This document shows, in pieces, positions 5,618 through 27,230 of a DNA stretch of 64,000 nucleotides. A program made the position numbers and the translations under genes. The DNA is from Pecten maximus (Eukaryota): the NCBI RefSeq assembly GCF_902652985.1, contig NC_047016.1, forward strand, positions 53,940,001 to 54,004,000. Direction: 5' to 3'. The stretch's first letter is position 1. Each line of letters opens with the position of its first letter. The notes below the pieces were generated by a model. The model did not search any database, was not told the origin of the DNA, and was given only the letters and a program-made list of their open reading frames with translations.

Positions 5618-6360
5618 TTAGCAATCGAAAAAGTGGAATTTACATTGGAATATAGATTTATCGGCTTTACACATATCGAAGTAAAGATTATTTGAATTGT
5701 TTTGGTCTTCCCAAGTATATACCGTGACGGTGTCGTCCATAAAGCTCTCACCACAATAGTGTAACTCAACTCTATGTAGACCTCTCGCCAAATTGTCGTC
5801 AAAGTGTTTCAAGTCGCCTTTACGTGACGAATAGTGTGCCGCGTCGACGACGAATCTAGCGTACGACGCCCAGTTTGTGTGACAATAAGCATCTGTATCA
5901 CTCCAGGCCACGTGACATTCATATACACTAGCACAGTCTGGACGCGTCAGTTTGTCAAATTTCAGAGACACATACTTTTTCGCGGACTCCGCGTATTTTT
6001 CCCGCCACCAATCCGGAAGTGGTTTCGGTCGCCGGGTCGCTTTGTCGATGCTAACAACCTGAGTAATATTTGAAGCTAATAACACCTTTTCTGTCGAATC
6101 ATACATGTTTGTGATAGTGTTTAATGACGAGCTGCCAATGTATCCGCCAATGACATGCATTCGAAGTGGTGTTTTTTTAATGGAAAAGTCGTAAAGTTCT
6201 TTGTAGAATGTGATCTCCGACGATACCATGAATGTCATCCGATCACTGGTCATTTTTGAAAAATCTCTGAATGTTCTGCCTTCTTGGTCCAGAGGGTGGG
6301 AATAAGCGAAGAATCTGGCCGCTCCCATCAGCTTCATCATCTGCCAGAGTTTAGGTTGAC
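5618..6360 (-). CDS. Thioesterase-like gene A (double hotdog fold, acyl-ACP/acyl-CoA thioesterase-like), last coding exon
   Basis: Open frame with acceptor tatttttcag|GT CAA CCT at 6361/6360 and stop TAA at 5618. Motif SDTDAYCHTNWASYARF resembles the D-x-D-x-N-x-H-V-N-N-x-x-Y motif of hotdog thioesterases. Collinear with paralog exon 13143..13879. ORF-track residues upstream of GQPK are intronic. Confidence 0.85.
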
Positions 6361-6654
6361 CTGAAAAATAAGTGGAACCGTTATATGAACACAACCGTGT
6401 TATACCAATATACAATATATATTGTGACCACCAATATCCTAAATCATTGTCCGTATTCTGTTTCATTGCATAAGAATTAGCATCATCGTTAGCCAAGACT
6501 TCTGATTACGTTACACTCAACGAACAGTCTAACGTAATTTCCGCTACTCGAACATTTATCAAAATGTGTGTCTATTACACAACAACCGGCTTCGAGTGTT
6601 TTTTTGTTGTTTTTTTTACTTGTATGCTTGATACCGGTATATATGGGCTTACTT

Positions 6655-7520
6655 TGGTACAACTTACCATTGACGTCATAGTCATCAGAATCCATGCCCG
6701 ACTTACCATTGACGTCATAGTCATCATAATCCATGCCTGACTTACCATTGGCGTCATAGTCATCAGAATCCATGCCCGACTTATCATTGACGTCATTAGT
6801 CATCGGAATCCATGCCCGATTTATCATTGACGTCATTAGTCATCGGAATCCATGCCCGACTTATCATTGGTAAAAACTTATCATTGACGTCATTAGCCAT
6901 CGGAATCCATGCCCGACTTACCATTGACGTCATAGTCATCGGAATCCATGCCCGACTTACCATTGACGTCATAGTCATCAGAATCCATGCCCGACTTATC
7001 ATTGACGTCATAGTCATCAGAATCCATGCCCGACTTATCATTGACGTCATTAGTCATCGGAATCCATGATCGACTTATCATTGACGTCATTAGTCATCGG
7101 AATCCATGCTCGACTTACTATTGACGTCATAGTCATCAGAATCCATGCCCGACTTATCATTGACGTCATTAGTCATCGGAATCCATGCCCGACTTACCAT
7201 TGACGTCATAGTCATCAGAATCCATGCCCGACTTATCATTGACGTCTTTAGTCATCGGAATCCATGCCCGACTTATCATTGACGTCATTAGTCATCGGAA
7301 TCCATGCCCGACTTACCATTGACGTCATAGTCATCAGAATCCATGCCCGACTTATCATTGACGTCTTTAGTCATCGGAATCCATGCCCGACTTATCATTG
7401 ACGTCATTAGTCATCGGAATCCATGATCGACTTATCATTGACGTCATTAGTCATCGGAATCCATGCCCGACTTATCATTGACGGCATTAGTCACAGAAAC
7501 CATGCCCGGTAGCATTGGTA
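6655..7520. repeat. 39/40-bp minisatellite (~22 copies) derived from the gene A exon-2/intron-2 junction
   Basis: Unit on the minus strand gggcatggattctgatgactatgacgtcaatg|gtaagtc matches the exon end gggtatggtttccggtgactatgacgtcaatg|gtaagtt. Confidence 0.95.
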
Positions 7521-7528
7521 AAACTTAC

Positions 7529-7650
7529 CATTGACGTCATAGTCACCGGAAACCATACCCGGATGTTCGATTACAGCCTTAACCGCATCCCGGTCCTCCG
7601 AGATGAACTTGCAACCAAGGATGTGGACGGACGCTGACTTCCTGATCTCC
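7529..7650 (-). CDS. Thioesterase-like gene A, exon 2 (EIRKSASVHILGCKFISEDRDAVKAVIEHPGMVSGDYDVNG)
   Basis: Acceptor ataattcccag|G and donor AATG|gtaagt. 122 nt, phase 2/1, joins the last exon in frame. Homologous to gene B exon 2 (AVVKHPGLSYGVYDSNG). Confidence 0.85.
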
Positions 7651-8693
7651 CTGGGAATTATAAAAAGTGCAAGTATTTGATGAAAACCAATTCTGATCAT
7701 ATTTTAGAAATCCGTTTGCATTCAATGTTGTGATTCAATAGTCGAGGCCTCTAATTAATATAAATAAATTGTAGTTATGGACAGGGAGTGACATGTTTGT
7801 TTTTATCGACAATTCGGTTCTACTCAGATTTCCATCCCAATGTCATCAATGTTCATTCCAGTGAGTGTGCAGTGGGGCGTGTTAAGCAAGTGATGTAGGG
7901 GGTGTGCCCCTGGAGTTGATTTTTCATTCTGGGTCATCGGAACGTGTCAAGCCCCTGTGCCACCACTTGAGTAGACCTACCTATAGGGGTTCGACACTCC
8001 CATATTTGTTTCCCTAGCTTATCGAGAAGAATGTATTAACCACAGACCACTCATCAGTTGGGTTCATTTGAACACATGCGTCTACATTTTGTAATATTTA
8101 TTGACAGAAATCAGCACTTTTTTTCGAAGGTAAATTAAAAAAGTATAGGAGTCGTTTACACAAATCATGTACAGTTGATTCACGTAATCGGTACTTTAAA
8201 CGCTTGAGATTTTTACTGATTATAATTATAAGCTCTTGTTGAGTATGCGCTCTTCAATACCCAATGTGTATAATGATACATCCGCATATGTCAGACGAGA
8301 TGTTTGTAGAAAAAAAACGAATAATATATATATATTTCCTTTGGTTCTGTAAACTTCAGTGTATATTTCCTTTAGAACTGAAATGCAAATTTGCTTCGCA
8401 TATATATACACATTTGTAAACATATAGATCAGAAACGATCGAGTCTACATCACATCACTCTCAGTCGACCTTGTATGGGCTCCTTATGATCTGTCACGAA
8501 TAATCCTCATCAGAATCTGAACATTATATACTGTAAACTACCCTCTGGGAGAACATAATACTAGAATATAAAAATCTCAGGATACACGTGAATGATATAC
8601 GTACGTGTATTAAAACTATTGATACCCTATACACATTTTTCTATAAAAATAACATTCACAGTGAAACCAATTCTCTCATCGTGACTTACAAAC

Positions 8694-8722
8694 CTCAGTT
8701 TCTCGGCCCTGGCATTATCCAT
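8694..8722 (-). CDS. Thioesterase-like gene A, probable first coding exon (MDNARAEKLR)
   Basis: ATG at 8722 and a phase-2 donor AG|gtttgt, matching the phase of exon 2 and the EKYR junction of gene B. A possible acceptor (gtttgacag) at 8741 suggests a further upstream exon. Confidence 0.6.
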
Positions 8723-9263
8723 ATCTGTCGGTTGTGATTTCTGTCAAACAGAACTTCTGGTGAGCTGGTCAGGTGGCAATGTATGACGGTCTAGATCTGT
8801 AGCCTCATGGATATGGTCCTAGATATTGACCCCTGCACAGTGATGTGGTGTTGATGGAAATTTTAAGTGACGACATTTGTTCCGGATATGACGAATACAC
8901 CAAGACTATAGTAGATAAAAGAGGCGTGTCAAAATGAAGATATTTCAGATATTATCCAGTCCACCTTATCACCATAATTATATGATCCCGATACAATATC
9001 GTAGATAATTAGGACTCTTTTCGTCTGGGTTTCTCGATAGAATTATACATATGCTCTACTTCCATATATTATGAAGTTATAGAAAAAGTTTGATGGTAAA
9101 TAGTGTGTGAATTATAACACCATTCAATTTATTTGGAATGAAAAGAATTACGCAGTCCTTTTAATTACTACGTAATATATTGGTAACTTTGGTTGTGCCG
9201 CCCGGATATATTTAGTGTGTACATTAAATTACCCGGTCACATATTTCACAACAAACGGGCACG
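8723..9263. promoter_or_regulatory. Putative bidirectional promoter between thioesterase genes A and B
   Basis: Only ~540 bp separate the two divergent predicted start codons. Confidence 0.5.
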
Positions 9264-9376
9264 ATGCTACCGGTAGTTTGGAGAAGTACGCTCTTGACGA
9301 AGCGATTACTGAATTACAGAAGTTGTTTACCAGCTCACAAACTTTTGTATTCTACTGATAATGTCGAAAAGTACAG
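9264..9376 (+). CDS. Thioesterase-like gene B, exon 1 (MLPVVWRSTLLTKRLLNYRSCLPAHKLLYSTDNVEKYR), mitochondrial-presequence-like
   Basis: ATG at 9264, open for 37 codons, donor AG|gtacgt in phase 2 matching exon 2. The first 31 aa are rich in R/K/L/S/T with no acidic residues. Confidence 0.75.
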
Positions 9377-9475
9377 GTACGTAAATGAGGCGGAGTATAG
9401 GGTGCAGTGTGTACTCAAAGACACTTGTATCTGGTAACGCCTATGTGTGCATCAGCATATAACGTTATCACACAG

Positions 9476-9552
9476 CACAGGTGCCTGACTCGTTTTTATA
9501 AAATAATAACATATAGAGTACATATTTTATAAAAACGAGTCAGGCACCTGTG
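9476..9552. mobile_element. 77-bp mini inverted-repeat element in gene B intron 1
   Basis: Perfect 30-bp arms cacaggtgcctgactcgtttttataaaata with a 17-nt loop, flanked by a CACACAG direct repeat. Confidence 0.8.
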
Positions 9553-10805
9553 CACACAGTTAGATACACAGGGACACGAAAACTGGTTTCTATGCGAGTA
9601 TAGCTTCTATAATTAGCAAATCTTATTGTATATTACTCGGGAAAATTGTGTCAGCTGGCCCCAAAGTCTGGTGATAATGTAGAATCTAAAATCGTCCAGC
9701 CCTTCTGTTGATGTATAGTGAGTCACTGAGTGGCCTTTGGACTCTGGCGATCGTACTGCCCCGATATGCCTACCTGAAGTGCGCAGCACAGGTGTCTCCG
9801 GTGGCAGGTAGTAAATACAGAGAAGCCGTTTGGAGCATTCAAGATCTGGCGTAATTAGAGCTTGAAACCGAGTATGATGCAGAAGTGATCCAGGATTTTG
9901 ATCTTTTTACATGAGCCTGTATATGGCTGCATATGTTTAAGAATTATTGTGCTAAACCAATTCAAAAAGGGAGTTTGAAACAATATAGTCGGTGATATAA
10001 AATAAACGAAATGCACACCAAGACATGTAGATTGTTTTCCATTGTAATGACCATAGAAGGCTGGTGGGTTTGAGAGTTCAAAAGTAAAAAATCTGATTTG
10101 ATCATGGTCACTTCATATACTTTCCAGAGTTGAGGATTTTTATTAGAAATTACACAAAGTAGTGATCAACATTTGAGAGCATTGTCAAGACATCGTGCAT
10201 TTGAAAACTAACAGAATAAAGTTCGTCGTGTGTAGAATCTCTTGTTTACAATGCATTGTTAAAGTCCAACCTTTGTGACACTCTGTACCTGTTCTAGTCG
10301 CTAGTACACCTCTTAGCAAAGCTAATAACACTAAAATGACTCCTCAACTTTCTTGGTAACCGGCGCCCTGACACATTTAGTTATGCTGTACCTTTCATGA
10401 AAATCTGTGTAAAAATAATGAGTGATCTTGCTCAGTTGATCACAATTTCCCTTTAGCCTTTCCAAGTGGTAGGACGTCAGCCCAGAGAGCGAGCGGTCGC
10501 TAGTTTGAGCCCAGGCAGGGTATTTTAGTAAATTATTTGTATTCTGTAAATGACATTGACCTTTTGGTAGGAATTTCTAAGTCATTGACACTCTACCATT
10601 TCATCTCCGATCAGGGAATTGAACCCCAGACGGCTTTTGAACTAAGAGCAAACTATCCACTACGCCATCCGCGACACTGTTAAGCCTCACATGTATGCTT
10701 GTTTTATCCGGCGAAGTATAACTTTAGCGAAGCCCATTTTTACTGAGGAAGGATTTATTGAATAGATTTATAAATATAACATACTGATTACTGTGTTTGT
10801 TTTAG

Positions 10806-10924
10806 GTCTCTACGGAGGGACGTTTTAATGTCACTGAATTATCACCTCGACCACGTGGACAACGATGTACCGGAGGCTGTGGTCAAACATCCGGGACTCT
10901 CGTATGGCGTCTACGATTCTAATG
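10806..10924 (+). CDS. Thioesterase-like gene B, exon 2
   Basis: Acceptor gtttgttttag|G and donor AATG|gtagga. 119 nt encoding SLRRDVLMSLNYHLDHVDNDVPEAVVKHPGLSYGVYDSNG, homologous to gene A exon 2. Confidence 0.85.
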
Positions 10925-11250
10925 GTAGGACATTCTAACACCAGAGGCCAAAGATAATCCAACTATACTTGTCTGAGAACAGCAGATCTGCAAGATATTT
11001 GTACAGATGATCTCATACAGAACTGCACCACAAAATATACCAGCGCCCATTACCACCATTATTCCTTAACTTTGGAAACTCACTAGGTTCAAAGTCCTAA
11101 AGTATTTTTTTAATTAAGTAAATTCCTTATCCCAAATTTTAAGGAACGTTGGGAAATTCGGGTCCTGGATCTTAAACGACATCTTGTATGGCAAACTTGT
11201 CAACGTTACTGTTTACGGCATCAATACATAGGATTTCAAAGTCAACAAAG

Positions 11251-11720
11251 CAAATAGGTATTTATATGTTGGGGAGAACAACAAATAGGTATTTATATGT
11301 TGGGGAGAACAACAAATAGGTATTTATATGTTGGGGAGAACAACAAATAGGTATTTATACGTTGGGGAGAACAACAAATAGGTATTTATATGTTGGGGAG
11401 AACAACAAATAGGTATTTATACGTTGGGGAGAACAACAAATAGGTATTTATACGTTGGGGAGAACAACAAATAGGTATTTATACGTTGGGGAGAACAACA
11501 AATAGGTATTTATACGTTGGGGATAACAACAAATAGGTATTTATACGTTGGGGAGAACAACAAATAGGTATTTATACGTTGGGGAGAACAACAAATAGGT
11601 ATTTATACGTTGGGGAGAACAACAAATAGGTATTTATACGTTGGGGAGAACAACAAATAGGTATTTATACGTTGGGGAGAACAACAAATAGGTATTTATA
11701 TGTTGGGGAGAGCAACAAAC
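11251..11720. repeat. 31-bp minisatellite (~15 copies), gene B intron 2
   Basis: Unit caaataggtatttatacgttggggagaacaa. Confidence 0.95.
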
Positions 11721-11899
11721 GAGTAATGTTTGATCGCATAATATGGATACCATAGAATGTATAGAGGTCGCAAACAAGTTGTTTTTACTGAAAAGTATAC
11801 AGGCAATCTAAAACGATTTGAATATTCTGGTGGCGAGCTTTATTGTTTTAGTCTTTGACTAAACTGCAAACTTGTACATATTGTCACAATATAACATAG

Positions 11900-12685
11900 A
11901 TATAAACGGAGCAAGTTATATCAACATACATGTATATATATAAACGCAGCAAGTTATGTCAACATACATGTATATATAAACGGAACAAGTTATATCAACA
12001 TACATGTATATATATAAACGGAACAAGTTATGTCAACATACATGTATATATAAACGGAACAAGTTATATCAACGTACATGTATATATAAACGGAACAAGT
12101 TATATCAACATACATGTATATATATATATAAACGGAGCAAGTTATATCAACGTACATGTATATATAAACGGAACAAGTTATATCAACGTACATGTATATA
12201 TATAAACGGAACAAGTTATGTCAACATACATGTATATATAAACGGAACAAGTTATATCAACGTACATGTATATATAAACGGAACAAGTTATATCAACATA
12301 CATGTATATATATAAACGGAACAAGTTATATCAACATACATGTATATATATATAAACGGAGCAAGTTATATCAACATACATGTATATATAAACGGAGCAA
12401 GTTATATCAACGTACATGTATATATATATAAACGGAGCAAGTTATATCAACATACATGTATATATAAACGGAACAAGTTATATCAACATACATGTATATA
12501 TATATAAACGGAGCAAGTTATATCAACATACATGTATATATAAACGGAGCAAGTTATATCAACGTACATGTATATATATATAAACGGAGCAAGTTATATC
12601 AACATACATGTATATATAAACGGAACAAGTTATATCAACATACATGTATATATAAACGGAGCAAGTTATATCAACATACATGTAT
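11900..12685. repeat. ~39-45-bp minisatellite with variable (TA)n, gene B intron 2
   Basis: Unit tataaacggaacaagttatatcaacatacatgtata(ta)n. Confidence 0.95.
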
Positions 12686-12779
12686 CACAGTTGTTGGTGG
12701 AAGAAGATCAAGAAGCAAACCCACAAACACACAAACACACAAACACACCAATTTTACCTTTCACCACGATTCATTATCA

Positions 12780-13111
12780 CGGAATAAAAGAATGTTACAG
12801 TGTAAAAATAATGATAGGACTATTACAGTGTAATAATTAATAGGAATGTTACATTGAAATTGTTATAAAAGGAATATTACATTGTAATAGTTGATAGGAA
12901 TGTTACAGTGTAATAATTTTAATAGGAATATTACATTGTAATAGTTATAATAGGAATGTAACATTGTAATACAAATGTAGTTATAATAGGAATATTACAT
13001 TGTAATAGTTGATAGGAATGTTGCATTGAAATTGTTATAATAGGAATATTACATTGTAATAGTTATAATAGGAATATTACATTGTTATAGTTATAATAGG
13101 AATATTACATT
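12780..13111. repeat. Degenerate ~28-bp tandem repeat ending ~30 bp upstream of the gene B acceptor
   Basis: Unit taatagttataataggaatattacattg. Confidence 0.85.
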
Positions 13112-13142
13112 CGCGTGATTCCGTGATGTTTATTTTTTGTAG

Positions 13143-13879
13143 GTAAACCAAATATTTGGATGATAATGAAGATGATGGAGTCCGTTAGATTTTTTGCCCA
13201 TCACTATCCTCTGGACGATAATGGACGCACATTCCGGGACTACGAACAGATGACAAGGGATTGTATGATATTCTTAGTCACGTCAGAAGTGGTGTTGAGT
13301 AAAGAAATCTACAAACCCTCCGAGGTCACGCCCTGGCTGAAAACCAGTATACAAGGGGGCTATGTAGGAAAGACATCATTGAATTCCATAACGGAAATGA
13401 GGTCTGAAAATGGAGGACACGTCTTGGCGTCAAATATCAACCAGGTCGTCTGTATCGACAAACAGAGCAGACGACCCATGCCATTCCCGCTGTGGTGGCG
13501 GGAAAAGTATTCAGAATCTGGAAAAAGTCATAAACGTTTAAATTTGGAAAAGTTTGAAAAACCAAAGGAAACCGGCACTTATTCTACCAAGATTGCTTGG
13601 AGTGATACGGACATAAACTTGCACACAAACTGGACAACATACGCACGATTTGCTGTGGACGCTGCTCATCACTGTCATCAAAATGGCACGTTAAACAATT
13701 TTGAGGACAATTTTTCTAACGGTATCCACAAAGTTCAGATATACTTTTATGGAGAGAGCGTTCAGGCCGACACATTAACCGTTCATACATGGGAGGACCC
13801 CGATAACCATCGTTTATTAATGTTGGATATTTACAACAAAGGAACGTCTATTTGTCAAATCAAAATTGTTTTTCATTAA
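13143..13879 (+). CDS. Thioesterase-like gene B (double hotdog fold), last coding exon
   Basis: Acceptor ttttttgtag|GT AAA CCA. Motif SDTDINLHTNWTTYARF and stop TAA at 13879. Aligns end to end with the gene A last exon. Confidence 0.85.
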
Positions 13880-17657: not shown

Positions 17658-19054
17658 ACATGTCCATCACATCATGATGGTTTAAATACACGCATGTCAT
17701 AATATCAATCGTTTGTATTCACTCGTGTTAATTACATCAATATTCATTTAAATACACGCATGATATACAAAATATCCAAAAAGATTTATCCCGTAATTCA
17801 ATCAACCAGTACCTATACACATACAAATTAATTACCTGCACATTACATTGCTTCTGAGCGACGTTTGAATGCATTATGGGTAAATTTCCTAAGGTTATTT
17901 TAACATTTTTTTTTTAAATCGAAGTTGGCTAAGTCTGAAAACACTAGGTCTACGGAAATAGTATTTCTTTAGATATTTTGCCTGTAGATCATCATAAAAA
18001 GGACACTTTAAAATAAAATGGAATTCATCCTCGACGTCTCTATTATCACATTAACTACAAACTATTTTCCCTGGCTATGTTATTGTATCTTCCACTTTCT
18101 ATATGTAACTTATGTGACGACATTCTAATTCTTAATATACTTTTCCTTGTATTGATTTTCTATAGGTTTCCTTAGATAAAATTGCAAACCCCAGTTGTCA
18201 ACTAAATGCTGATATGAATAACCTTTTCAGGAGTTTTCCATGTTGCACAGCAGTTCTTGACTATGGATTTCATGATATTAACTCTCAATGAACATGTACT
18301 AAGTATATCATTTTTCTATCAAGACTACTATATTCCACAAGTATCCTAATCCTAGACGATCTAATTCCAACTTTATATTTACAATCCACTTATCATTATC
18401 TTGCAATTTTTGCTTCATAGCACGCTTTCAGTTATCCGTATCTTTGATTTTTTTCCAATATTTGAAAATGTCCAGCTTTCTAACAACATGCATAGATAAT
18501 CTCCCTAATTCATAATATACTAAGTCATGATATGTACTATTTGTAACACCTAAAATATGTTTACAAAAACGTGTGTGAACCATTTCGACATCTGTGGCAT
18601 ACACTACAAACATATGTGTCGAACACAGAGCCTAACGTTTCAGTATTACAATTGTGATATTTCATATTATTTGACAGTCTAAAATAAGCTTTTCTACCTG
18701 TTTCAGCAGCATTCCCAATTCAATTGACAACTTTCATTTATGAAATTCATTTCAGTCATTTACAAAAAGACTGTGAGACTGCGAGTTCTATTTAACATTA
18801 TCGTACAAATATTTTACACTTTCCAAGCTGTATTCCTTGTTTTATTATCTTACACCATAGACTACTTCTATCGAGGAGATCAAAACGCTTTCTTGTAATC
18901 TACAAAGCAACAATAAATTAAGTCTGCGCTTATCTTTCCAAGTTATATTAATTAATGCACAAATATTGCGTCGGCCGTAGAACAGCCCTCATTAAAACCA
19001 AATTGAGCATCAGACATAATGTTGTTTTCTTTATCCCATTTCAACAGTCTACTA

Positions 19055-21235
19055 AACCCCCTACATTGGGAAACATTCAGAAAAATAAGAAATACTTGTG
19101 TTGGTGCTATCCGCAATGCAAAAAACAATTTTTACAAAAAAATGTCTTCTAATCTTCAATTTACGTCTAGTTCGTCTAGAAAATGGTGGAAAATGTTGAA
19201 CTCTCTTACACAGTTTTCATGCAAATCAACCGACATACCTACACTGATTTACAATGACATAGAATACACAAATGATAAAGAAAAAGCCAATGTACTTAAT
19301 AACTATTTTGTCCAGCAGACTTTAATTGACGATTCACATCATAACCTACCAATTATCAATGACAACAACACCAGAATGCTAGATAATATAAATATTACAG
19401 ATCAAGACGTGTCTGACGCCATTGATATTATAGATGCTTCTAAAGCCTCTGGACCGGATAAGATTAGTGGTAAACTTATAAAAGAAGGGAAAAGACAATT
19501 AATAGGGCCTCTTTGTAATATTTTTAACAAATCGTTACATAATCAATATTACCCTGCAATATGGAAAAATGCCAATGTTATCCCAATATTTAAAAAAGAC
19601 GACCCAAGTGCTGTTTCCAATTATCGTCCTATTTCATTAATAAGTATAATAGGCAAAGTTATGGAAAGGTGCATTTTTAAACATGTTTATAATTTTTTGC
19701 GTGATTCTTCTTTTTTTACTGAGCACCAGTCAGGTTTTAGATGTGGCGATTCTGCTATTAATCAGCTATTGATTATCACAAATGACATTGGTAAAGCTTT
19801 AGATTTTGGGAAGGAGGTACAGGTTGTGTTTCTTGACATAAGTAAGGCGTTTGATCGCGTCTGGCACAAGGGTCTTCTCTATAAATTACAGAAAGCAGGC
19901 TTTGAGGGAAATATTTTAGGGTGGTTCAAAAGTTATCTTTCTGATAGGAAACAACGAGTTGTGGTAAATGGTGAATTTTCAAACTACAGTACTATTAAAT
20001 CTGGCGTTCCTCAGGGCTCTATATTAGGGCCCCTGTTGTTTTTGATATTTATAAATGATATAATTTCGGATATTGGCAGCATTATCAAATTATTCGCTGA
20101 TGACACCACTCTTTATCTCGTAATAGATGATACAATTAATTCAGCAAATATTATAAATAACGATCTTTTTAAAATTCATACATGGGCCACTCAATGGTTA
20201 GTTACGTTTAATACAAATAAAACGGAGTCGTTATTAGTCAGTAAGAAAATTTCAAAATGTAATCTTCCACAACTAAGTATGGACAATACGAATATAAAAC
20301 AAGTTTTATTACATAAACACCTAGGTTTATATTTCAACTCTGAATTAAGTTGGACTAACCATGTAGATTGTATTATTTCTAAAGTATCAAAAAGGCTAGC
20401 AGTTCTCCGCAAACTTAAATTCCTTCTTGACCGTAATACCTTGGAACGTATATATTTCTCATATATAATGCCTATACTCGAATACGCCGACGTTGTATGG
20501 GATTCTTTACCAGCTTTCCTTATAAATAAACTAGAATTAATTCACAAAGAATCTGCAAGAATAGTTACGGGAGCAACAAAACTGGTAAGTAGTGAACTAT
20601 TATATAAAGATACATGTTGGGACACATTAGCAGAACGTAGGAAAAAACATAAGATAATTAAGCTTCATAACATGGTTCATAATCATACTCCTCCTTCCCT
20701 TTCTAACTTACTTCCAAGAAGAAATTCTGAAATACATAGCCAAAGAACTAGACAATCAAACCAATTATCCATCATCAAAACTAATACCAGTTCCTACAAA
20801 AACTCATTCCTTCCAACCACTATTCATCTATGGAACAACTTACCCTCCACCATTACAGAAAATGCATCCGTGTCAGTCCTAAAAAAATATCTTGATAGAG
20901 ACAGAAATAAATCGCCAAGTTATCTATCCTGTGGAAACCGTAAAGCCCAAATTTATCACACCAGACTCCGATTAAAATGTAGTAGCTTAAAAGCACATCT
21001 TTTTGAAAAAAATCTTAATGATGATCCTTTTTGTTCATGTGGATACATCGAGGACAACTTTCATTTCTTATTTGCATGTGAAAAGTATACAGATATAAGA
21101 GAACAATATATATATACATTAAACTATGACTTAGATACGGATTGTTTACTCTGGGGAAGTCCAGACCTTACAGTACAAAAAAACGAAGAAATTATATTGG
21201 CAGTACAAGAATTTATAATGAAGAGTGAGCGTTTT
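19055..21235 (+). CDS. LINE ORF2 reverse transcriptase (5'-truncated; runs into assembly gap)
   Basis: About 727 stop-free codons with all RT motifs. The related copy at ~34480 ends KRFD*, so the stop probably lies at the start of the N gap. Confidence 0.85.
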
Positions 21236-25211: not shown

Positions 25212-25534
25212 ATTTAGTGAATATTGATACACCTTGTATAATTTCCAGACACATCACTGTATCGTCTACTCCTATACGTATATGAGGTCTTATTCCACCT
25301 GATTACATTGGTGGATATTTGCGCCTGTCAAAAGTTTCCTGTCGTGTAAACCTCTAATATTATTGGAGTATGTATCGTCATGTTCTGTAATACCTGATGA
25401 ATTGAAAGTGGTAAACGTTACTAAGGTTGAATAGTCTGTATAGATACAAACCATAAACCCCTGGGTTATCAACACTTACCTTCGTTAATTTAGTAATTTA
25501 CTCTCTAGAATTTCCATATCTTTTATTTTATCAG

Positions 25535-25606
25535 GTTGATGCCATGAAGGTTGGTGTGAAACAGTTTAAGAAGGAGTACAAGCATGTTAACATCGACAAA
25601 ATTGAG
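25535..25606 (+). CDS. CHMP5: CHMP5 exon 5
   Basis: tttatcag|VDAMKVGVKQFKKEYKHVNIDKIE|gtgagt. Confidence 0.95.
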
Positions 25607-26536
25607 GTGAGTATATACCTTAGACATGTTTCAATTTGTATGATGACAAATTTATGTAAAAATGGTGAGAAATTGAATAAACACTTTCATTGCAATCATA
25701 TAATTATGTTAAAGAAATAGTTTAAACCACAAAATAGTATTATCATTAAACACCATGTTTGTTTTGCAGTAGAGATATGAAAAGCTGACAGTAAAATTTA
25801 ATGGAAATTGAGTAAATATTTAAAATAAATTGAGTCAAGTTGTAGCCCTGTAGCGAATGTTTGGTTATGAATAGGTGTACATGTAACAGTGTATGGTGGT
25901 GTTATTGTACTGACATATTTCTGTTTCGGTGTAATTTATGGTACAGCATCTATTAAAGGTGGTACATATACCATGGTCAGGAAATCTATGTAGTGGGGCT
26001 TTTTTAACTGCACAGGAAGAAAAAGTGATTTGTTTTCTGTCTAAGCAATAAAAGCATGCACATCCACAAAACACATACAGTCACACCACGAAAACAAACC
26101 AGCATATATAGGTATTTATCCTGCAACTGCCATCGCATTGTCGGAATACATCCACCGTATATATTTTTGCTGTATACGGCAGTGACGGAAAACAGCTGTA
26201 TTTTGGAATCTTAGCTTGTGCGTCAATTCGACTGACCTACTTCAAAGTGAAACAACGTTTAAAAGGCGAACATATTTCTAATTTTTTGACACCGTTTCAC
26301 TTCAAAATGATTATTTTTGATGACTACATGCAGGATAAATACTCAGGACATCAAGACAAATGTGGCTCGCCACTTTTGTCTTTCTTTACCCTCGCCAAAA
26401 TACAGCTTATATTTTAAGACACTGACCATGTATTCTCTCTATATATATACATGTACATAAGACATACACATGACAGACTTGGGAGATAATTACAGATTCC
26501 TACTCCATTTTAACACCAATGTTTTCTCTGGGTTAG

Positions 26537-26758
26537 GATTTACAAGATGAGTTAGAAGACCTTACAGAACAGTCCAGTGAGATCCAAGAGATAATGGGCC
26601 GGAGTTATGGAATGCCCGAGGTGGACGATGACGAGTTGGAAGCAGAGTTAGATGCCCTTGGGGACGAGATCGGACTCGATGAAGATTCTTCGTATCTTGA
26701 TGATGCTGTGTCTGCTCCCTCAATACCCACCGCAGAACCTGGAGCGGACAGTTCTCGG
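26537..26758 (+). CDS. CHMP5: CHMP5 exon 6
   Basis: ggttag|[44 protein letters not shown]...DSSR|gtaagt. Contains the Snf7-family acidic motif. Confidence 0.95.
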
Positions 26759-27230
26759 GTAAGTTACACAAAAAATGGCCTCTGGGATTGGGTGGAGGAC
26801 ATCAATCTGAACAGCAAATTGATAATTATAAATAAAATATCATTTGATGTGAGCAATTCTTTATTGAGTGTCCTTCCTTTTATAATGCTGACATTTTGCT
26901 GACAAAAAAAATGTGTGAGTAAGGACGTCTGCACTGACTAGAGTTTGTAACACTTAATTAGTTTGTAAAAGGTCAATGTGACTTGTATATATTGTTAAAT
27001 ATTTTAATCTGTACCTCAGCTGATGGATCATGCTTCTTTACCCCAGGAGGTAGAGTCTGTGATTATCATGGCATACACTGTTAGGTTCTTACTAAGCTAG
27101 GCTGGAATGTGATTTTCCTTATTCTTTTACAAGTTAGATATATGTATAACATCCTAATAAATTCATTTTTATCACGTATTTGTATGTTTTAACCACTGGA
27201 ATCTGTAATTGTTAAAATTTGTGTTTTCAG

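Follow-up and report, generated by a model that had tools for sequence, protein, structure and literature searches.

Divergently transcribed double-hotdog paralogs of the scallop Pecten maximus: predicted TE14-fold thioesterases of an animal family with differing targeting signals

A stretch of 64,000 nucleotides of Pecten maximus DNA (assembly GCF_902652985.1, contig NC_047016.1, positions 53,940,001-54,004,000, forward strand; hereafter the window, whose own positions are used as coordinates below) carries two divergent protein-coding genes, designated here A and B, with products of 297 and 322 amino acids (aa), respectively. Both products are predicted to have the double-hotdog fold of TE14 enzymes, the thioesterases of acyl-ACP (ACP, acyl carrier protein), and we consider it rather probable that they hydrolyze thioesters of acyl-coenzyme A (acyl-CoA), B in mitochondria and A in the cytosol, within a family which was likely peroxisomal at its root. 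Gene structure, splicing, family membership, residue conservation and the composition of the C-terminal tails are direct observations; the fold, dimerization and targeting of the two proteins are predicted, while the substrate, the chemistry and the sharing of one promoter are what we infer from the data considered together below.

Structure and transcription of the gene pair

Genes A and B lie head to head, their start codons being 541 bp apart, and their products share 46% identity (135 of 292 aligned columns). All introns are of the GT-AG type, are in phases 2 and 1 and interrupt homologous codons, and both proteins carry the N-terminal YDxNG..R and C-terminal SDTDxxxHTNWxxY..GES motifs. 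The first-pass annotation of this DNA had described such an arrangement, i.e., two diverged paralogs with the same intron positions and phases, ATGs separated by about 540 bp and both motifs in either gene, and proved accurate in these respects. Gene A is located on the reverse strand: its coding exon 1 (8722-8694) begins with the ATG at 8722 and ends in the phase-2 intron, exon 2 (7650-7529) encodes the HPG..YDVNG motif and ends in the phase-1 intron, and exon 3 (6360-5618) encodes the bulk of both hotdog domains. Its orthologues P0013 and P0014 begin alike. Gene B, on the forward strand, consists of coding exon 1 (9264-9376), the first 30 or so codons of which (9264-9353) make up a predicted mitochondrial presequence, exon 2 (10806-10924) with the HPG..YDSNG motif, located at the predicted dimer interface, and exon 3 (13143-13879). 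The product of gene B is identical, letter for letter, to NCBI LOC117322511 of P. maximus. The phase-1 intron is found family-wide, as an AG acceptor occurs at the same codon in all 13 other scallop paralog loci tested, where the large last exon starts; this intron is therefore not special to the pair.

Transcription was assessed with assembled contigs of eight public runs from seven studies, RNA being on record for only one run and guessed for the others. Spliced joints of A intron 2 were found in six of the eight runs and those of A intron 1 (7650/8694) in three; B intron 1 was spliced in six of eight runs, and B intron 2 in all four runs compared there. In the stretch compared, one run contained joints of A only and two contained joints of B only, a lack of contig cover being no evidence in either direction. 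Both genes, the transcription of which the first-pass annotation had left to be checked, are thus spliced in public runs. The transcript contigs reach in the 5' direction to 8812 for A and to 9239 for B, leaving at most 426 bp between the transcripts; this gap (8813-9238, 34% GC) is a candidate bidirectional promoter. Of the transcript variants listed within coding sequence (n=31), 21 were synonymous and none affected a catalytic residue.

Predicted fold, active site and dimer

Two AlphaFold models were compared with known structures, one for B (predicted local distance difference test score, pLDDT, 87) and one for the orthologue that A has in Mizuhopecten (pLDDT 91). The five best VIA structure matches of either model were TE14 acyl-ACP thioesterases (for B, Z 22.6-24.1, root-mean-square deviation (rmsd) 2.6-3.0 Å and 235-244 residues aligned; for the A orthologue, Z 23.0-24.3 and rmsd 2.7-3.1 Å; 235-245 residues aligned over both models), at a sequence identity of 11-16%. 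Foldseek agreed with the TE14 fold (E 2.6e-17), and the tandem-hotdog architecture proposed in the first-pass annotation thus finds support in both models. The next match was LnmK (Z 19.6-19.9), followed by ACOT7 and ACOT12 (Z 15.7-17.7). A search of the Protein Data Bank (PDB) with a single protein sequence gave no match. The family profile gave 28 PDB sequence matches, the only human or mouse chain among them being that of an unrelated cadherin (E 0.84).

The exon-3 proteins of A and B score above the cut-off of Pfam 4HBT_2 (PF13279; 36.2 and 27.2 bits, respectively, against 25.5), stay under that of Acyl-ACP_TE_C (PF20791; 18.2 and 14.4 bits against 21) and give no match to Acyl-ACP_TE (PF01643). 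Three of four animal relatives passed the PF20791 cut-off in one comparison; of 36 family members, 35 matched 4HBT_2 and three matched the Acyl-ACP_TE N-domain at E<=0.1. A and B fall far under the cut-off of NCBIfam YbgC, and two hotdogs are present per chain in the models. Like the TE14 enzymes (plant FatA/FatB, PDB 5X04, 9MQF and 7HQQ; bacterial 2OWN, 2ESS and 4GAK), A and B are predicted to form a tandem hotdog over about 240 residues (rmsd 2.6-3.1 Å), with the catalytic Asp, His and Glu in the C-terminal domain and a basic TRR patch. Unlike them, A and B possess a helical insert of about 10 residues before the Glu, HxNW in place of HxNN, and an additional N-terminal strand and helix, and the family is an animal one with intron-containing genes, many members bearing peroxisomal or predicted mitochondrial tags. 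The single-domain 4HBT/YbgC acyl-CoA thioesterases (PF13279; PDB 5BYU, 1S5U and 2FUJ) share with A and B the D-x-D..H-x-N and G-x-S-S motifs; however, they are oligomers of hotdog chains of about 130-150 aa, whereas in A and B one chain unites two hotdogs, arranged as in TE14. A and B are predicted to function like hotdog thioesterases and are candidate rather than certain members of TE14 in the strict sense.

The putative catalytic residues are all encoded in exon 3 of either gene: D207 (5891-5893), H211 (5879-5881) and E255 (5747-5749) on the reverse strand in A, and D234 (13610-13612), H238 (13622-13624) and E282 (13754-13756) on the forward strand in B. Across 202 family sequences (B numbering), D234 and H238 are each retained in 200 and E282 in 191, while position 236 is occupied by Asn in 123 and by Tyr in 60. 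In an alignment with 13 bacterial TE14 proteins, the family positions D234, N236, H238 and E282 coincide with D, N, H and E residues that are invariant in all 13. Relative to the full D-x-N-x-H-x-N-N, the motif reads D-I-N-L-H-T-N-W in B and D-A-Y-C-H-T-N-W in A. The center proposed for FatA comprises D262, N264, H266, N269 and E300, of which N264 and N269 act via backbone nitrogen, and dimerization is needed (PMC12713704). Since these two Asn residues are proposed to act through backbone atoms, the Tyr of A and the Trp of both proteins appear tolerable, and by this analogy the Tyr of A is compatible with activity.

Dimerization was modeled with two copies of B residues 48-322. The B-B pair scored 0.63 against 0.01 for the best control, at least 60% of the contacts were common to the runs, and pLDDT was 86 or higher; modeling thus supports a predicted B homodimer. 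Among microbial proteins, 21 of 30 homodimers attained the mark applied and none of 23 monomers did; the eukaryotic figures are 17 of 29 dimers (7 of 16 in animals) and none of 30 monomers, but only one of seven dimers without an older solved relative, so the passing of the B-B pair may reflect its likeness to solved TE14 dimers. The predicted dimer would pack helix to helix, as in TE14: its interface is centered on W230, at the position of the FatA dimer Arg258, and includes the HPG..YD motif. A dimer has also been described for DdhA (PMC2698920).

Extent and phylogeny of the family

A query with gene B gave 18 matches in the scallop genome, 15 of them on the contig of the pair, and a second query added two degraded ones; the family thus counts at least 18 matches in this genome. 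A library search with the family profile returned 409 clusters (at 50% identity) with E<=1e-30 and 3347 with E<=0.001, of which the best 150 were examined. Sixteen of the 30 cluster representatives looked up bear a species name and belong to a bivalve, gastropods, a chiton, the annelids Owenia and Capitella, Branchiostoma and Ptychodera; no vertebrate or ecdysozoan member occurred among these 30.

Paralog divergence in the family is wide (18-27% identity to B), and the clade of A and B is conservative (76-85% identity between scallop genera). In a maximum-likelihood tree of 36 sequences, both the A clade and the B clade have good support, and their sister relationship is weakly supported (80/86); they nest in a group of bivalve sequences, with separate branches for the oyster-side, ark-clam and clam proteins. 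Because of this placement, the A/B duplication seems to have arisen within bivalves and to predate the scallop genera sampled. In Mizuhopecten, A and B share a longest contig of 446,339 bp and have near LOC numbers, which suggests that they are linked there as well, orientation not being implied.

Several members depart from the common pattern. The only family paralog on another large contig of the scallop genome (L009, G000:C11:9508503-9509189) has no catalytic His and Glu (SDTDISQRT; GST) and is likely an inactive long-branch member, as judged by its sequence. Protein P0051 (571 aa) apparently consists of two family units, and in several members of the gastropod clade (P0069, P0108 and P0110) the second domain is enlarged by an insert of some 60 aa.

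Targeting signals

The peroxisomal targeting signal type 1 (PTS1), taken in its canonical form [SAC][KRH][LM], was sought in 193 family proteins, 187 of which have a complete C-terminus. It ends 41 of the 187, against 0.29% of internal tripeptides, SKL being the commonest tail (n=20). The tagged proteins include named members from amphioxus, a hemichordate, an annelid and a gastropod and come from different 50% clusters and several phyla. With four fragmentary or fused proteins left out, a canonical PTS1 is found in one of the 42 proteins of the A/B clade and in 42 of the 160 other sequences; A and B themselves end in FFDC and IVFH, respectively, and have no PTS1. Among the 13 other scallop paralogs, two bear canonical tags (SRM, in the paralog at C2:49822763, and SKM) and eight bear weaker variants such as SSL and SKI, both of which have been listed as PTS1 (PMC8919083). 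In a tree rooted with 13 bacterial TE14 proteins, tagged deuterostome and annelid proteins appeared near the base with weak support, and the family was likely peroxisomal at its root.

The N-terminus of B has about 30 extra residues, with five Arg or Lys and no Asp or Glu among the first 30, and the same character is seen in three orthologues; the B model is disordered there (pLDDT <50 over residues 1-23 and 27-29). Orthologues of A contain four to six acidic residues in their first 30. B is thus predicted to carry a conserved mitochondrial-type presequence and A to carry no signal. The N-terminal sequence was long enough for a simple composition rule to be applied to 88 family members, 15 of which have such an extension by this rule. 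The Owenia protein P0151 combines a mitochondrial-type N-terminus with a C-terminal ARL, which suggests dual targeting.

Peroxisomes work with acyl-CoA and use thioesterases (ACOTs) that release acids and CoA (PMC8919083). The occurrence of PTS1 across the family, together with this preoccupation of peroxisomes with acyl-CoA, favors acyl-CoA over acyl-ACP as the substrate, as does the match of the N-domain to 4HBT_2, a profile of acyl-CoA type, in 35 of 36 members. Peroxisomes are not known to contain ACP.

Proposed function and alternative explanations

By analogy with FatA, the N-terminal hotdog would hold the acyl chain, while Asp234 (B numbering), positioned by His238 and the backbone at 236 and assisted by Glu282, would attack the thioester, the enzyme being active as a helix-to-helix homodimer. 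CoA and a fatty acid would be freed, much as by mammalian ACOT1 and ACOT2. The peroxisomal tag would have been lost in the bivalve ancestor of A and B and, after the inverted duplication, with B having a presequence, a single short upstream region common to both genes would serve two compartments.

In mammals, Acot1 is cytosolic, Acot2 mitochondrial and Acot3-6 peroxisomal (PMC4356623). The mammalian type I ACOT cluster thus resembles the scallop family in consisting of clustered paralogs divided by targeting signals, and by analogy we infer that the parallel is functional. The type I ACOTs have an alpha/beta-hydrolase fold unrelated to the hotdog fold of A and B, and the scallop possesses BAAT_C-family genes separate from the A/B family. 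ACOT7, ACOT12 and THEM6 do belong to the hotdog superfamily, the first two being double hotdogs that lie about 6-8 Z units below TE14. Two single-hotdog scallop genes, which we take to be THEM6-like, are located at 6.01 and 7.09 Mb of a different contig (L038 and L039, contig C6) and share only a 22-column motif with the A/B family. Since TE14 is closer by fold, and the THEM6-like and BAAT_C genes stand apart on other contigs, the pair is not orthologous to THEM6, ACOT7/ACOT12 or type I ACOT, in keeping with the first-pass annotation.

Several facts and reasons weigh against acyl-CoA hydrolysis in the compartments proposed. The closest folds are all of enzymes named for acyl-ACP. A basic T-R-R/K patch, for which a role in ACP binding has been proposed in the plant enzymes (PMC5830452), is conserved in the family (R187 in 178 and R/K188 in 188 of 202 sequences). 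The scallop genome gave 17 matches to type I ACOT/BAAT-like genes and contains THEM6-like genes as well, which would make a plain housekeeping role redundant, and the divergence of the paralogs (18-27% identity to B) suggests specialized substrates. PTS1 was counted over related sequences rather than in 187 independent trials; the presequence was called by a composition rule rather than by a trained predictor; basal support in the rooted tree falls from 0.75 at the root of the animal clade to 0.1 just inside it; and the peroxisomal argument is an indirect one for A and B, both devoid of PTS1.

The alternative that survives best, although we regard it as rather unlikely, is that A and B are true acyl-ACP thioesterases, B acting on the ACP of mitochondrial type II fatty-acid synthase (FAS) and A acting in trans on ACP domains of cytosolic FAS or polyketide synthase (PKS), thereby setting chain length. 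Apart from the fold matches and the retained RR patch, it is favored by the abundance of scallop ketosynthase genes (41 matches) and by the name 'Acyl-ACP thioesterase' automatically given to some orthologues in UniRef. Mitochondria contain free-standing ACP, which fits the predicted location of B. It is disfavored by the PTS1 on many relatives (41 of 187), by the N-domain scoring as 4HBT_2 rather than Acyl-ACP_TE, and by the location of all 41 ketosynthase matches outside the contig of the pair; besides, even named TE14 enzymes may also hydrolyze acyl-CoA (PMC3176148). A narrower version, which we hold for somewhat less probable still, makes B a re-targeted mitochondrial member of an ancestrally peroxisomal animal TE14 branch, kept in molluscs, annelids, hemichordates and amphioxus; B would release acyl chains from mitochondrial ACP as a chain-terminating step, with cytosolic A expressed from the same promoter.

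Improbable, in our opinion, is that A and B are co-regulated subunits of an A-B heterodimer, as the first-pass annotation had supposed in part. Such heteromers are physically plausible, seven of nine core residues of the predicted B-B interface being identical in A; no more than 426 bp separate the transcript starts, five of the eight runs contain spliced forms of both genes, and a contig of one run (joint 7668-10806) suggests a B isoform without the presequence exon. In vivo, however, the presequence conserved in B and missing from A argues against them, as it implies different predicted locations; each protein has the full catalytic set, so that neither needs the other; and over the whole interface only 14-17 of 33 positions match the A orthologues, no more than in the unduplicated ark-clam protein (18 of 33). 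Equally doubtful is an acyltransferase role in place of simple hydrolysis, by which dietary or xenobiotic acids would be conjugated to an acceptor, for which speak the fold match with LnmK, a double-hotdog acyltransferase/decarboxylase, a proposed covalent Asp intermediate that could be transferred (as deduced from the FatA center, PMC12713704) and large fast-diverging expansions typical of detoxification families, and against which stand the nearly invariant TE14 motif D-x-N-x-H..E, the TE14 scores 3-4 Z units above LnmK and the conservatism of the A/B clade.

Novelty and significance

TE14 has been described as a plant and bacterial family (PMC3176148, PMC516016). Some animal members already bear automatic labels in UniRef and Pfam, so that these proteins are not new as such; what is described here is apparently an uncharacterized animal branch of known fold with a compartment split. 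The literature searched (titles and beginnings of abstracts, with subscription journals mostly outside the scope) yielded no work on this family in animals or on how its members are targeted, and the targeting pattern and its implication for the substrate are apparently absent from that literature as well.

A large bilaterian branch (409 clusters at E<=1e-30) with many peroxisome-tagged members would mean that part of the lipid metabolism of invertebrates has been overlooked, and would be a convergent copy, in a different fold, of the mammalian ACOT compartment split. It could bear on the handling of algal fatty acids by filter feeders, and chain-length engineering would gain many new thioesterases from it. 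Should B instead serve as an acyl-ACP thioesterase of type II FAS, here within an animal, bivalves would possess a chain-terminating step for mitochondrial fatty-acid synthesis.

Genomic context and origin

The proposal of a stand-alone specialized-metabolite module, put forward as a possibility in the first-pass annotation, is weakened, the pair being two of at least 18 genome matches, with none of the 41 ketosynthase matches on its contig (C2). A specialized-metabolite cluster was rejected likewise, the recognizable neighbors in the window being a LINE reverse transcriptase and a Snf7-family gene. Ketosynthase-domain exon matches form about a dozen clusters on contigs C8, C10, C12, C17 and C19, which corresponds to many FAS/PKS-like genes. 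In the 20 kb to the left of the pair no further family copy was noticed among the open reading frames (ORFs) of at least 90 aa, which were inspected by eye only and not by a Pfam scan. In the comparison of gene orientation, each of seven metagenome loci with a family gene, on short contigs, contained a single family gene.

Recent horizontal transfer is unlikely, no close prokaryotic or viral relative having been found and the 202 family sequences forming one clade against the 13 bacterial TE14 proteins. In 201 genomes from a single bacterial phylum the best score was 41 bits, whereas the best 150 of the 3347 library matches all scored 160 bits or more. A pattern scan with the amphioxus protein revealed no prokaryotic relative; one weak plasmid match of 71 aa was obtained, the A/B patterns retrieved one ordinary TE14, and viral contigs gave none. 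An ancient transfer may or may not lie behind the family; clusters from Myxococcota and Binatota lie near the family in the Atlas (0.88-0.92).

Additional features of the locus

On the forward strand of the window, a long ORF with an RVT_1 domain, of a LINE-type retrotransposon, lies at 19007-21235, and exons of the Snf7-family gene, presumably CHMP5-like, lie at 25457-26899.

Intron 2 of gene A contains about 21 tandem 40-bp copies of the end of exon 2 with its donor site (6662-7508, reverse strand), of which seven retain the GTAAGT donor and 14 are without GT. The use of these repeat-borne donors was considered and rejected: none was seen in use in the eight runs, which showed only the first, true donor, and all seven would lead to a stop at codon 62.

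In the 7668-10806 joint mentioned above, a forward-strand GC donor at 7668, just outside exon 2 of gene A, is connected to the true acceptor of B exon 2 at 10806. It was present in one of the eight runs, and four further runs did not show it again; it may represent either an antisense-overlapping alternative first exon giving a presequence-less B or an assembly chimera. A five-codon upstream ORF (8791-8808, reverse strand) is located at the 5' edge of the longest contig of gene A. Finally, intron 1 of gene B contains a perfect 31-bp inverted repeat with a 17-nt spacer (9475-9553) and high contig depth, which looks like a miniature inverted-repeat transposable element or another dispersed repeat.

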